Origin: a virus
Taxonomy: Duplodnaviria; Heunggongvirae; Uroviricota; Caudoviricetes
IMG/VR virus record: IMGVR_UViG_2617270946_000019
DNA length: 8,400 nt
Strand: one strand, 5' to 3'
Position numbers and translations under genes: made by a program. Below, in pieces: positions 3,808 to 6,979 of the stretch. The notes beneath the pieces are model-generated. The model saw only the letters and a program-made list of their open reading frames with translations. It was not told the origin of the DNA and did no database searches. Numbering within the stretch: position 1 is the first letter of the stretch; each line of letters begins with the position of its first letter.

Positions 3808-3860
3808 CCTCTGTTATCACTTTTCTGGTGATTCGGCGGAAACGGATATCCGCCCTTTTT
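3808..3860 (+). ncRNA. dicF: DicF-like small RNA with intrinsic terminator
   Basis: Sequence UUUCUGGUGA...GGCGG-loop-CCGCCCUUUUU (3822-3860) matches the 5' start and 3' terminator of E. coli DicF as I recall it, but with a shorter internal segment. Terminator hairpin 3835-3854 plus T-run 3856-3860. Sits directly upstream of a dicB-like gene, as in the dicB operon. The 5' end is uncertain because DicF is produced by processing. Confidence 0.6.
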
Positions 3861-3864
3861 AAAG

Positions 3865-4021
3865 TGAATTTTGTGATGCGGTGAATGCGGCTATGCGCAC
3901 GCGGAACAGTTAAAGCAGTAAGGCGGTATTTTACGGGCGTAACGAGCATCAACTAATCCGGCGTTAATTGTTAACTGGTTAACGTCACCTGGAGGCACCA
4001 GGCACTGCATCACAAAATTCA
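3865..4021. repeat. Long-range inverted repeat (15-bp perfect arms: 3865-3879 and 4007-4021) enclosing 127 bp
   Basis: TGAATTTTGTGATGC at 3865-3879 is exactly the reverse complement of 4007-4021. In RNA the pairing extends to about 21 bp (3863-3883 with 4003-4023) allowing G-U pairs. Lies between the dicF terminator and the dicB RBS. Confidence 0.7.
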
Positions 4022-4038
4022 TTGTTGAGGACGCGATA

Positions 4039-4227
4039 ATGGAAACGTTATTACCAAACGTTAATACGTCTGAAGGTTGTTTTGATATTGGTGTTCTGCT
4101 CAGTAACCGGGAGTTTACTGAAGATGCCATTAATATGAGGAAATATGAGCCTTATCTGCTCAATGATAATTCCATACTTTCCCGAATTGCTCTTCTTGAA
4201 CTTGGTATTTTCGGAGAACGTCAATGA
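4039..4227 (+). CDS. dicB: DicB-like cell-division inhibitor
   Basis: 62 aa; N-terminus METLLPNVNTSEGCFDIGV... closely resembles DicB (MKTLLPNVNTSEGCF...) as I recall it. RBS GAGGA 5-9 nt upstream. Position downstream of the dicF-like RNA. Confidence 0.7.
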   Translation: METLLPNVNTSEGCFDIGVLLSNREFTEDAINMRKYEPYLLNDNSILSRIALLELGIFGERQ

Positions 4228-4412
4228 CTTCAGCATTTGCACTGATGATGACGGTTTTTCTTATAACGGGTGAATCACAGAATGTGATTACCGGAATTTA
4301 TGCAAGTAAAGAATCCTGCCTCCAGGCAAGAGACGAGCAAAAAATTTCTGGTGAATGCCTCCCGCTAAAAAAAGTATCGCTGTACCTGAATAACGAAACA
4401 CCGGCTGGATAA
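4224..4412 (+). CDS. YdfD-like small membrane/lysis-type protein
   Basis: 62 aa; ATGA start/stop overlap with dicB-like; RBS GGAG 7 nt upstream; N-terminal hydrophobic segment (AFALMMTVFLITG). Position and size match ydfD downstream of dicB. Confidence 0.55.
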   Translation: MTSAFALMMTVFLITGESQNVITGIYASKESCLQARDEQKISGECLPLKKVSLYLNNETPAG

Positions 4413-4507: not shown

Positions 4508-6979
4508 ATGAGTAAAGTCTTTATTTGCGCCGCCATTCCGGACGAACAGGCAATAAAGGAAGAAGGTGCCGTCGCTGTAGCCACTGCCATTGAAGCCGGT
4601 GATGAACGTCGCGCCCGCGCAAAATTTCACTGGCAATTCCTGGAACATTATCCGGCTGCTCAGGACTGCGCTTATAAATTTCTTGTCTGCGAGGATAAAC
4701 CCGGTATACCCCGCCCTGCCCTAGATTCCTGGGATGCTGAATATATGCAGGAAAACCGCTGGGATGAGGAGTCTGCTTCCTTTGTCCCGGTTGAGACTGA
4801 ATCAGATCCGATGAACGTCACTTTTGACAAGCTGGCCCCTGAAGTACAGAACGCTGTCATGGTTAAGTTCGACACATGTGAAAACATCACCGTTGATATG
4901 GTGATTAGCGCGCAGGAACTGTTGCAGGAAGACATGGCAACATTCGACGGACATATCGTTGAAGCGTTGATGAAAATGCCAGAAGTTAACACCATGTATC
5001 CGGAGCTTAAGCTGCATGCCATCGGGTGGGTTAAGCATAAATGTAAGCCTGGTGCCAAATGGCCCGAAATTCAGGCAGAGATGCGCATCTGGAAAAAACG
5101 TCGCGAAGGTGAACGCAAGGAAGCCGGAAAATACACGTCTGTTGTTGATCTCGCCCGCGCCAGAGCCAATCAACAGCACAGTGAAAATTCAACAGGAAAA
5201 ATCAGCCCGGTCATTGCTGCCATTCATCGCGAATACAAGCAGACATGGAAAACACTGGATGACGAACTGGCCTACGCTCTCTGGCCTGGTGATGTGGATG
5301 CCGGAAACATTGACGGCAGCATCCATCGCTGGGCAAAAAATGAAGTTATCGACAACGACCGCGAAGACTGGAAGCGTATCTCGGCATCAATGCGCAAACA
5401 GCCTGATGCCCTTCGCTACGACCGCCAGACTATTTTTGGCCTTGTCCGTGAACGTCCGATCGACATTCACAAAGACCCTGTGGCACTGAACAAATACATT
5501 ACTGAATACCTGACTACAAAGGGCGTGTTTGAAGATGAAGGAAGAAATCAGAGCGCAACTGATACTCTCTCGTCGCCAGTACCAGAAACTGATGCAGTGG
5601 AAACGGCAATTCCGGGCAACGAAAAAACCGAATGCAAAGTGGAAGTCGAACCATCTGTAGAGCGTGAGGGGCCGTTCTACTTCCTCTTCACCGACAAGGA
5701 TGGCGAAAAATACGGTCGCGCAAACAAACTTTCTGGTCTGGAAAAAGCACTAGCCTTGGGAGCTACGGAAATCACAAAAGAGGAATACTTCGCACGTAAA
5801 AACGGCACGTACTCAGGTTCACAACAAAATACTGGTGCATCTGACACGACCGCACAACCAGAGCCGGTAAAAGTTACCGCTGACGAAGTAAACAAAATTA
5901 TGCAGGCAGCCAATATCAGCCAGCCTGACGCCGATAAGTTGCTTGCTGCCTCTCGCGGAGAATTTGTTGCAGGGATTAGCGACCCGAATGATCCGAAATG
6001 GGTAAAGGGGATTGAAACCCGCGATTCTGTAAACCAGAACCAGCAAGAATCGGAACAGAACGACCAGAAAGCGGAACAAAACAGCCCAAATACGCAACAA
6101 AACGAGCCAGAAACGAAACAACCTGAGCCAGTAGCGCAACAGGAACCGGAAAAAGTCTGCACCGCCTGCGGTCAAAGCGGTGGCGGCAACTGCCCTGATT
6201 GTGGCGCGGTGATGGGTGACGCAACATACCAGGAAACATTCGATGAAGAGAATCAGGTTGAAGTTCAGGAAAATGATCCGAAGGAAATGGAAGGCGCTGA
6301 ACATCCACACAAGGAGAATGCTGGTAGCGCTCAGGATCACGCCAGCGATAGTGAAACTGGCGAGACGGCAGATCCCTTAATTGCGATGAACGGTCATCAC
6401 GTTATCACATCCACCAGCAGGACGTGTGACCATCTAATGATCGACCTTGAAACCATGGGAAAAAATCCTGATGCCCCGATTATCTCAATAGGTGCAATAT
6501 TTTTCGATCCGCAAACCGGAGATATGGGACCGGAATTTAGTAAGACTATCGATCTGGAAACTGCTGGCGGAGTCATTGATCGTGACGTCATTAAAAGGTG
6601 GCTGAAGCAATCACGTGAAGCGCAGTCTGCCATTATGACCGATGAAATCCCGTTAGATGATGCACTGTTACAATTGCGGGAATTTATCGACGAAAACTCC
6701 GGTGAATTTTTTGTTCAGGTCTGGGGAAATGGAGCCAACTTCGACAACACGATTTTGCGCCGTTCATACGAACGGCAGGGGATCCCCTGCCCGTGGCGTT
6801 ACTACAACGATCGCGATGTACGCACAATCGTTGAGCTGGGGAAAGCCATAGACTTCGATGCCAGAACGGCTATTCCATTCGAAGGTGAGCGCCATAATGC
6901 ACTTGATGACGCCCGTTACCAGGCAAAATACATTTCAGTTATCTGGCAAAAACTGATCCCGAATCAGGCTGATTTTTAA
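4508..6979 (+). CDS. Large prophage protein with zinc ribbon and C-terminal DEDDh (DnaQ-like) 3'-5' exonuclease domain; exodeoxyribonuclease VIII-like placement
   Basis: 823 aa. C-terminal domain carries motif I IDLETMG (D 6443-6445, E 6449-6451), motif II WGNGANFD (D 6743-6745) and motif III HNALDDA (H 6893-6895). CxxC-N7-CxxC zinc ribbon at 6158-6202, preceded by a Q/E/N/P-rich low-complexity linker (about 6035-6155). N-terminal about 370 aa has no motif I recognise. RBS GAGG upstream of ATG 4508. Confidence 0.8.
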   Translation: MSKVFICAAIPDEQAIKEEGAVAVATAIEAGDERRARAKFHWQFLEHYPAAQDCAYKFLVCEDKPGIPRPALDSWDAEYMQENRWDEESASFVPVETESDPMNVTFDKLAPEVQNAVMVKFDTCENITVDMVISAQELLQEDMATFDGHIVEALMKMPEVNTMYPELKLHAIGWVKHKCKPGAKWPEIQAEMRIWKKRREGERKEAGKYTSVVDLARARANQQHSENSTGKISPVIAAIHREYKQTWKTLDDELAYALWPGDVDAGNIDGSIHRWAKNEVIDNDREDWKRISASMRKQPDALRYDRQTIFGLVRERPIDIHKDPVALNKYITEYLTTKGVFEDEGRNQSATDTLSSPVPETDAVETAIPGNEKTECKVEVEPSVEREGPFYFLFTDKDGEKYGRANKLSGLEKALALGATEITKEEYFARKNGTYSGSQQNTGASDTTAQPEPVKVTADEVNKIMQAANISQPDADKLLAASRGEFVAGISDPNDPKWVKGIETRDSVNQNQQESEQNDQKAEQNSPNTQQNEPETKQPEPVAQQEPEKVCTACGQSGGGNCPDCGAVMGDATYQETFDEENQVEVQENDPKEMEGAEHPHKENAGSAQDHASDSETGETADPLIAMNGHHVITSTSRTCDHLMIDLETMGKNPDAPIISIGAIFFDPQTGDMGPEFSKTIDLETAGGVIDRDVIKRWLKQSREAQSAIMTDEIPLDDALLQLREFIDENSGEFFVQVWGNGANFDNTILRRSYERQGIPCPWRYYNDRDVRTIVELGKAIDFDARTAIPFEGERHNALDDARYQAKYISVIWQKLIPNQADF

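Follow-up and report, generated by a model that had tools for sequence, protein, structure and literature searches.

The analyzed DNA (the whole 8400-nt stretch, referred to below as the window) is a Qin/Kim-type prophage segment in which a long inverted repeat separates a DicF-like small RNA from the dicB gene. The question raised by this locus is what the repeat, together with the sequence enclosed by it, represents. Both DicF and DicB are classic examples of prophage-encoded regulators that act on the division and metabolism of the host cell, and the dissection of their operon continues. In the initial annotation, the repeat was described as a 21-bp RNA duplex that could be a substrate of RNase III, could set the DicF 3′ end or gate the translation of dicB, or could instead be a small inverted-repeat element at the DNA level. 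The reading preferred here is that the arms form the extended closing stem (P1) of a pseudoknotted RNA of the STnc100 family, placed after the DicF-like small RNA and its terminator and before dicB, and that RNase III cuts both arms; we assign it a probability of roughly 0.6.

The features of the region are collected in Table 1. In addition to the genes listed there, Pfam finds DicC-like and DicA-like regulators and a ydfA-type gene (DUF1391) in the window. An identical stretch is present in E. coli 2013C-4991.

Table 1. Features of the dicF–dicB region, with positions in the window.
Feature	Position	Strand	Description
DicF-like small RNA, short variant	3822–3860	+	Seed UUUCUGGUGA; terminator hairpin 3835–3854; U tract 3856–3860
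P1, 5′ arm of the 21-bp closing helix	3863–3883	+	Predicted RNase III cut after 3874
Predicted excised STnc100-like RNA	3875–4013	+	139 nt; 9-bp P1 with 2-nt 3′ overhang; putative release
P2 hairpin	3887–3902	+	3887–3891 / 3897–3902, A3899 bulged; 100% of cells paired; both-sided changes in 3 of 5 pairs
P3	3903–3959	+	3903–3905 / 3957–3959; encloses the variable insert 3914–3956; A-U, C-G, and U-G at one pair
Pseudoknot, 5′ strand	3907–3913	+	CAGUUAA; partner 3971–3977
P4 hairpin	3960–3986	+	3960–3968 / 3978–3986; both-sided changes in 6 of 9 pairs
P4 loop	3969–3977	+	Carries the pseudoknot 3′ strand UUAACUG (3971–3977)
P5 hairpin	3988–4002	+	CCUGG-AGGCA-CCAGG; AGGCA loop invariant; search motif for relatives
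P1, 3′ arm	4003–4023	+	Predicted second RNase III cut after 4013, 2-nt stagger
dicB Shine-Dalgarno (SD) sequence and start codon	4027–4041	+	GAGG 4027–4030, start codon 4039–4041; both outside the helix
dicB	4039–4227	+	62 aa; Pfam DicB (PF05358), 125.5 bits, full length
ydfD-like gene (DUF1482)	4224–4412	+	Overlaps the dicB end; Pfam match and K-12 orthologue annotation

The long duplex that separates the DicF-like small RNA from dicB was confirmed, and it is far beyond chance expectation. A repeat finder detected arms of 19 nt (3865–3883 and 4003–4021) that are 95% complementary, with one non-Watson-Crick position and a spacing of 119 nt. The perfect 15-mer TGAATTTTGTGATGC within them occurs once on each strand of the window (3865–3879 and 4007–4021); 0.07 matches are expected by chance, and two matches were reached in none of 200 shuffles. 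Direct reading of the bases shows that the pairs G3880·U4006, G3864·U4022, and A3863-U4023 lengthen the helix to 21 continuous base pairs (3863–3883 / 4003–4023), with three G·U pairs and zero mismatches. The arms, the perfect 15-mer, and the G-U extension all agree with the initial description, as does the placement of the repeat, which ends (4021) 17 nt before the dicB ATG (4039) and in the vicinity of its GAGG (4027–4030). Folding of the region 3850–4045, which had been suggested as a check of the duplex, gave −72.2 kcal/mol (z = −4.9), and the minimum-energy structure contains the long helix.

Comparison between lineages characterized this helix further. The MAFFT alignment lost register in the outer part of P1, and the covariation of the outer stem was tabulated from structure-guided duplexes instead. 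Among 14 lineages, at least two different Watson-Crick pair types were found at 10 of the 21 stem positions. For example, TGAATTTTGTGATGC is paired with GCATCACAAAATTCA in the window, CAGGCTTTAAGGTGC with GCACCTTAAAGTCTG in Citrobacter, and GGGCTTTGCAATGC with GCATCGCAAAGCC in Klebsiella. The duplex energy amounts to −18.4 kcal/mol for cognate arms versus −9.7 kcal/mol for arms exchanged between classes. Ungapped extension of the arms overlooked the kil-type copies, which have a bulged A, and duplex energies were used in its place; in the kil-type leaders, P1 is longer, with about 30 pairs, and takes in the A tract together with a portion of the SD sequence. The sense-strand duplex is more stable than the antisense one in 12 of 16 lineages, owing to G·U pairs. 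The arm covariation and this sense-strand G·U bias indicate that P1 is an RNA helix read in the direction of the operon.

As for the enclosed sequence, its relatives were collected by scanning viral and genome collections with the P5 motif, with GGUGAAU required 72–110 nt upstream. As a result, 173 copies with P5 and GGUGAAU were obtained (130 unique); many motif matches in genome contigs of GC-rich taxa had no 5′ core and were counted as chance. According to the RNAalifold analysis of 18 diverse copies, the consensus consists of the closing stem P1, hairpin P2, stem P3 around a variable insert, and hairpins P4 and P5. The multi-helix RNA closed in this way by the arms of the window measures 139–161 nt. 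Paired cells make up 97.1% in this consensus versus 28–47% with the partners slid, the observed values were reached in none of 500 shuffles, and 15 pairs of the inner structure show both-sided changes. The initial annotation had mentioned further local hairpins in the enclosed 119 nt; hairpins do exist there, but the conserved STnc100-family core and its presence in other phage contexts were missed. The CCTGG-AGGCA-CCAGG hairpin proposed at 3988–4002 is real and co-varying, with U-A as the central pair in 10 sequences and G-C in 8. In turn, the GTTAAC-TG-GTTAAC element proposed at 3970–3983 cannot be a hairpin because its loop would comprise only 2 nt; covariation backs P4 instead, and the first GTTAAC lies in the P4 loop.

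The P4 loop is additionally complementary to the strand located shortly 3′ of P2 (3907–3913). A first version of the energy test for this pseudoknot, in which the automatic extraction of loops was noisy, gave p = 3e-10, and the retest used fixed windows. In this alignment-free analysis, a Watson-Crick run of at least 6 nt was found in 58% of 104 unique cognate pairs, in comparison with 10% of swapped partners and 5% of the reversed control. The complementarity is kept across the family through 41 distinct strand sequences. The pseudoknot is absent from both the Rfam structure line and the 2026 Pas/STnc100 preprint. Judging by this comparative evidence, the enclosed module is a compact pseudoknotted fold with an almost invariant core. 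From E. coli to Klebsiella and P1-like phages, the core hardly varies; it is conserved far above the arms and measures about 80 to 129 nt across copies.

The insert of P3 shows a different pattern. Its sequence and length in the window (3914–3956) differ wholly from those in K-12 (locus L246, 1650–1686), while the flanks are nearly identical. The insert has the look of a swappable cassette and may be the site of the differing STnc100 and PasD seeds.

The family assignment of the module follows from Rfam comparisons. At gathering thresholds, Rfam gives zero matches in the window. A permissive scan finds a full-length STnc100 match (RF02076, model positions 1–206) at 3853–4071 with E = 7.3e-5; it is statistically significant, though its score of 31.2 bits is under the curated gathering threshold of 47 bits. 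The same model gives 34.4 bits for the dicF–dicB spacer of the K-12 Qin prophage and 28 bits for K-12 Rac. Relatives sharing the motif score 57–161 bits as STnc100 and align with the window copy through common elements. The architecture of the family, namely, the closing stem, P2, P4, P5, GGUGAAU, and the AGGCA loop, is present in the window copy. Like STnc100 and PasD, the leader module has a closing stem around P2, P4, and P5 with a variable middle, GGUGAAU and UCACCNGGAGGCACCNGGCAC are invariant in both, and lambdoid and P1-like phages harbor both. The P2 sequence is GCGGCUAWGCGCACGC in the leader module and CCCCCUGUGCGGAGGGG in STnc100. In contrast to the STnc100 type, the leader module has no terminator, its P1 comprises 21–30 bp instead of 7–10 bp, and it is located in the leader of an early operon before an ORF, whereas STnc100 is a separate gene of the late region. 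In particular, no 3′ terminator hairpin of its own was found after the module of the window, where the dicB SD sequence and ATG come next. No tRNA or tmRNA-like gene is present, and a full-text literature search on the core sequences yielded nothing but unrelated papers on human shRNAs. On the strength of model match and shared motifs, the dicF–dicB spacer is a previously unannotated member of the STnc100 family that falls outside the Rfam threshold.

The copies are of two kinds. The energies of the duplexes formed by the flanks are bimodal: P1 is long in about 37 unique copies (−26 to −40 kcal/mol, with shuffled controls at about −11 kcal/mol) and short, with only 7–10 bp, in about 90. The short-P1 copies that were tested are STnc100 proper by the Rfam threshold (57–161 bits). 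An SD sequence and an ORF come next in 36 of 39 long-P1 copies and in 20 of 93 short-P1 copies; a terminator comes next in 1 of 39 and 50 of 93, respectively. Fisher tests of P1 type against downstream context gave 1e-14 and 3e-9, values that overstate independence because the copies are phylogenetically related and the long-P1 ones represent only about four arm classes. Downstream of the long-P1 copies, the ORFs encode DicB, Kil, a 282-aa protein, and several small proteins. Thus, a long P1 goes with operon-embedded copies and a short P1 with standalone genes. The standalone STnc100 genes are often arranged in tandem, with 2–4 copies spaced about 250–330 nt apart, frequently directly downstream of phage tRNA clusters (loci L014, 2265–3380; L241, 894–2010; L025, 3121–3798; L009, 1121–1794; also L027 and L047).

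The module is portable between genomes. A BLAST search against phage genomes showed that the window region 3845–4023 recurs without dicB. The module was found before kil in the Shigella phage 75/02 Stx, before kilR in Rac-SA53, before terB in the tRNA-containing ban operon of P7, and in Klebsiella phages, with its end about 20–40 nt upstream of a start codon in each of these four contexts; it also precedes Klebsiella and Citrobacter ORFs. Matches were present in 4629 of 5426 E. coli genomes at 10,679 places, with a median of two and a maximum of nine per genome. About 190 plasmid records match the core only, without the outer arms; they are mostly non-mobilizable replicons of about 90 kb, which look like P1-type phage-plasmids.

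In K-12 itself, a three-part cassette also precedes kilR. The Rac cassette (locus L250, 9121–9364, minus strand) is composed of a DicF-like hairpin with a terminator, the long-P1 module, and kilR, where the DicF-like element scores 39 bits, under the threshold. The Rac copy was analyzed in NEB5-alpha, and the K-12 substrain AG100 is without Rac. The Rac and dicB arrangements are alike; therefore, the conserved unit consists of a small RNA with its terminator, the module, and a division inhibitor.

Two further cases differ from this arrangement. In some genomes, such as E. coli CFSAN061772 (locus L247, 1201–1305), the module is truncated at about the 3′ strand of P3 by a rearrangement that joins it to a partial DUF977 gene, and dicB keeps only the 3′ half of the module. 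The T4-like jumbo Aeromonas phage AP1 (MT713136) contains a K-12-type dicF and the module (locus L004, 2470–2720) with about 85% identity to E. coli, located in a tRNA region and followed by a degraded dicB start; this copy could be a result of horizontal transfer or an assembly contaminant.

As for the processing of the helix, later papers citing Faubladier 1990 state that RNase III produces a 72-nt DicF in K-12, which is 19 nt longer than the terminated 53-nt form. The K-12 DicF end lies at position 1595 of locus L246, and the addition of 19 nt leads to position 1614, 10 nt into the 5′ arm, which is equivalent to a cut after 3874 in the window; since it rests on two secondary statements of RNA sizes, this position is uncertain by a few nucleotides. 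With the customary 2-nt stagger, the second cut would fall after 4013, and the two cuts would split the 21-bp helix into 10 + 2 + 9 bp, i.e., exactly at its center. In vivo, E. coli RNase III acts on about 20–22 bp of double-stranded RNA, leaves 2-nt 3′ overhangs, and has at least one G-C among the two pairs between the cuts (PMC6212723). The intramolecular P1, with 21 continuous base pairs, is of the size suitable for double cleavage, and the pairs between the cut positions deduced from the RNA sizes would be G3873-C4013 and U3874-A4012, with a G-C pair present.

In the accessible part of a 2023 study of the operon, the only RNase III cut described is the well-documented one at the 5′ end of the 190-nt DicF precursor, a different, upstream site, and the 72-nt species is unmentioned there (PMC10448788). 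In two transcriptome-wide RNase III maps, DicF appears as a citation only; the operon is repressed in standard conditions. A search for transcript data on the spacer RNA found none. The window helix is orthologous to that of the K-12 dicBF operon, in which the reported RNA end falls at the center of the duplex (Faubladier, Cam and Bouche 1990, as cited by later authors). In comparison with K-12, the window has a shorter DicF-like RNA and a different variable insert. Because its DicF-like RNA differs from that of K-12, processing in the window is extrapolated from K-12, and because it is shorter, the extended form would measure about 53 nt. The RNase III part of the initial annotation holds in that the helix is of the right size and the K-12 end lies in the 5′ arm; it is not new, since the RNase III site defining the DicF 3′ end appears to be already known, according to secondary sources. 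In the cited K-12 work, as summarized by others, the site is a determinant of the DicF 3′ end and not the stem of a separate structured RNA.

RNase III cuts both strands of long stems in 16S and 23S rRNA precursors and in the early mRNA of phage T7, freeing RNAs and separating cistrons. The locus studied here resembles these systems in having a long helix that flanks a structured RNA or lies between cistrons; the difference is that the enclosed RNA is a small RNA-like module of about 140 nt, whose release is inferred.

The preferred reading can be described as the following sequence of events. Read-through of the DicF terminator would allow the 21-bp helix to form on the transcript, and RNase III would cut the center of the helix on both strands, after approximately 3874 and 4013. 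The cut in the 5′ arm would give the longer DicF 3′ end; both cuts together would free an STnc100-like RNA of about 139 nt with a 9-bp P1; and the cut in the 3′ arm would leave a dicB–ydfD mRNA with a 25-nt, 5′-monophosphate leader. The segment 3875–4013 folds alone to the consensus architecture (−48.4 kcal/mol, z = −3.4), and its 9-bp P1 is in the length range of P1 of standalone STnc100. Standalone copies would obtain their ends from transcription and termination, and embedded copies may have acquired the long P1 for excision by RNase III and uncoupling of the cistrons. Of this scheme, the helix with its covariation and strand, the family relationship, the portability of the module, and the association of long P1 with embedded copies are results of the present analysis; the RNase III dependence of the 72-nt DicF comes from the K-12 literature; and cleavage of the 3′ arm, the liberation and persistence of the core RNA, and a role for this RNA are predicted. 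A tentative extension, which is possible but has the odds against it, is that the spacers before dicB, kilR (Rac), and kil (Stx phages) encode a third, so far unrecognized product of these operons, namely, a pseudoknotted STnc100-family RNA of about 140 nt released by RNase III. If so, the division-inhibitor cassettes would be three-gene units (small RNA, structured RNA, toxic protein), where a host or phage factor would bind the invariant core as a scaffold, and specificity would come from the hypervariable insert.

Several other explanations of the duplex were considered. The helix could be only a processing or insulation site, at which RNase III parts the small RNA from the toxic dicB or kil mRNA and alters its stability, with the core as a passenger. 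RNase III cleavage is the sole step with experimental support, as far as secondary accounts show, and the downstream genes mostly encode the toxic division inhibitors DicB and Kil, for which decoupling is sensible. Nevertheless, this explanation is unlikely: a passenger does not account for an interior that is far more conserved than the arms and contains covariation-backed helices and a pseudoknot, or for the existence of standalone, terminator-bearing STnc100 genes whose RNAs reportedly bind Hfq. The core might also act in cis, by Rho block, processive antitermination, or ligand sensing, with the long P1 as a structural clamp. The invariance of the core and its pseudoknot are features typical of protein- or ligand-binding RNAs, and embedded copies lie at a fixed short distance before ORFs. 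However, standalone and tandem copies with terminators beside tRNA clusters misfit a leader-only role, a P1 of 21–30 bp would be constitutively closed, unlike a switch, and Rfam gives no match to a known riboswitch or antiterminator; we regard a cis-acting core as very improbable.

Gating of dicB translation through access to the ribosome-binding site (RBS), as initially suggested, is unsupported by the thermodynamic predictions and is considered quite improbable. It would fit the end of the 3′ arm 5 nt before GAGG and the kil leaders, in which the helix of about 30 pairs covers part of the SD sequence and the predicted cost of RBS opening is about 7 kcal/mol before the predicted cut and about 3.5 kcal/mol after it, which corresponds to a modest masking of the kil RBS. 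In contrast, GAGG and AUG of dicB are outside the helix, and cleavage does not lower the opening cost (in the window, 7.3 kcal/mol for the intact helix versus 8.3 once it is cut; in K-12, 3.6 versus 8.9), so that the helix does not mask the dicB RBS. No change was noted in Citrobacter, Klebsiella, and P7, and no conserved direction of the effect was found across the lineages. Sequestration of the SD sequence or AUG in one state, as in a translational operator or riboswitch-like element, was not observed for dicB. Finally, the repeat could be a DNA-level feature, i.e., a miniature inverted-repeat mobile element or a protein-binding or recombination site with terminal inverted repeats. The module is present at many places (the above 10,679, up to nine per genome), and the antisense strand also folds well (z = −4.4). 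Yet, the arms are wholly different between lineages and still complementary, and the interior is conserved, which is the opposite of transposon terminal repeats; G·U pairs favor the sense strand; direct repeats flanking the arms are absent; the copies occupy homologous positions of prophage operons; and the single partial copy that was examined represents a scar of rearrangement, not an empty site. The co-varying, non-conserved arms and the absent target-site duplications rule out a miniature inverted-repeat transposable element, and the DNA-level proposal of the initial annotation as a whole is rejected as having a negligible probability.

The preferred reading of the spacer as an STnc100-family RNA has consequences beyond the processing site. 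The RNase III proposal alone mostly repeats the 1990 result, and the main gain is the re-identification of the spacer as a module common to dicB and kil leaders. This module, found before genes of cell-division inhibitors in many phages, is new as a member of STnc100/PasD and known as an RNase III site. STnc100 and PasD are described in the literature as Hfq-binding, trans-acting small RNAs, and the function of the family is not known according to the 2026 Pas/STnc100 preprint, in which dicF, dicB, kil, RNase III, and the pseudoknot are all unmentioned. The assignment thus joins two literatures without mutual citation, for a family that is widespread among pathogenic E. coli. Judging by its co-varying pseudoknot and its nearly invariant loops, the family seems to be more than simple base-pairing small RNAs, which bears on the abundance of STnc100/PasD in Stx phages and outer-membrane vesicles.

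As for the DicF-like RNA of the window, it lies immediately upstream in the same transcript as the module and shares the seed with DicF (RF00039); it is a separate RNA, and the duplex is not its terminator hairpin. The terminator-like site at 3835–3854 is followed by CTTTTT. With the Rfam DicF model, the window gave no match at either the gathering threshold or E ≤ 10, in comparison with a score of 76.7 bits for K-12. Only the 5′ seed UUUCUGGUGA and the position of the terminator are conserved relative to K-12 DicF; the 3′ hairpin region of the latter, which was shown to pair with ftsZ and pykA, is replaced in the window copy. Since the ftsZ-pairing region is replaced and the Rfam model does not detect the RNA, it may not repress ftsZ as K-12 DicF does.

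The dicB start (4020–4051) is predicted to be locally structured, with AUAAUG (4036–4041) pairing with CGUUAU (4046–4051) around a GAAA loop. After the predicted cut, the remnant CAUUGUUG (4020–4027) could pair with CGAUAAUG (4034–4041), folding on the AUG.

Other parts of the window contain several additional elements. An ORF of an IS66-family transposase (remnant) is located at the left end (100–1230), beside the immunity region. A PaaA2-type antitoxin and ParE toxin pair (2230–2708) lies between the dicA-like repressor gene and the promoter region of the dicB operon. A near-perfect 39-nt palindrome with a 16-bp stem (2761–2799) overlaps the promoter-like TTGACA...TAGATT just upstream of the ydfA-type gene and is likely the operator and promoter of the dicB operon. 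Downstream of ydfD, an ORF of 823 aa (4508–6979) encodes a protein with a C-terminal Rv2179c-like 3′-5′ exoribonuclease domain.
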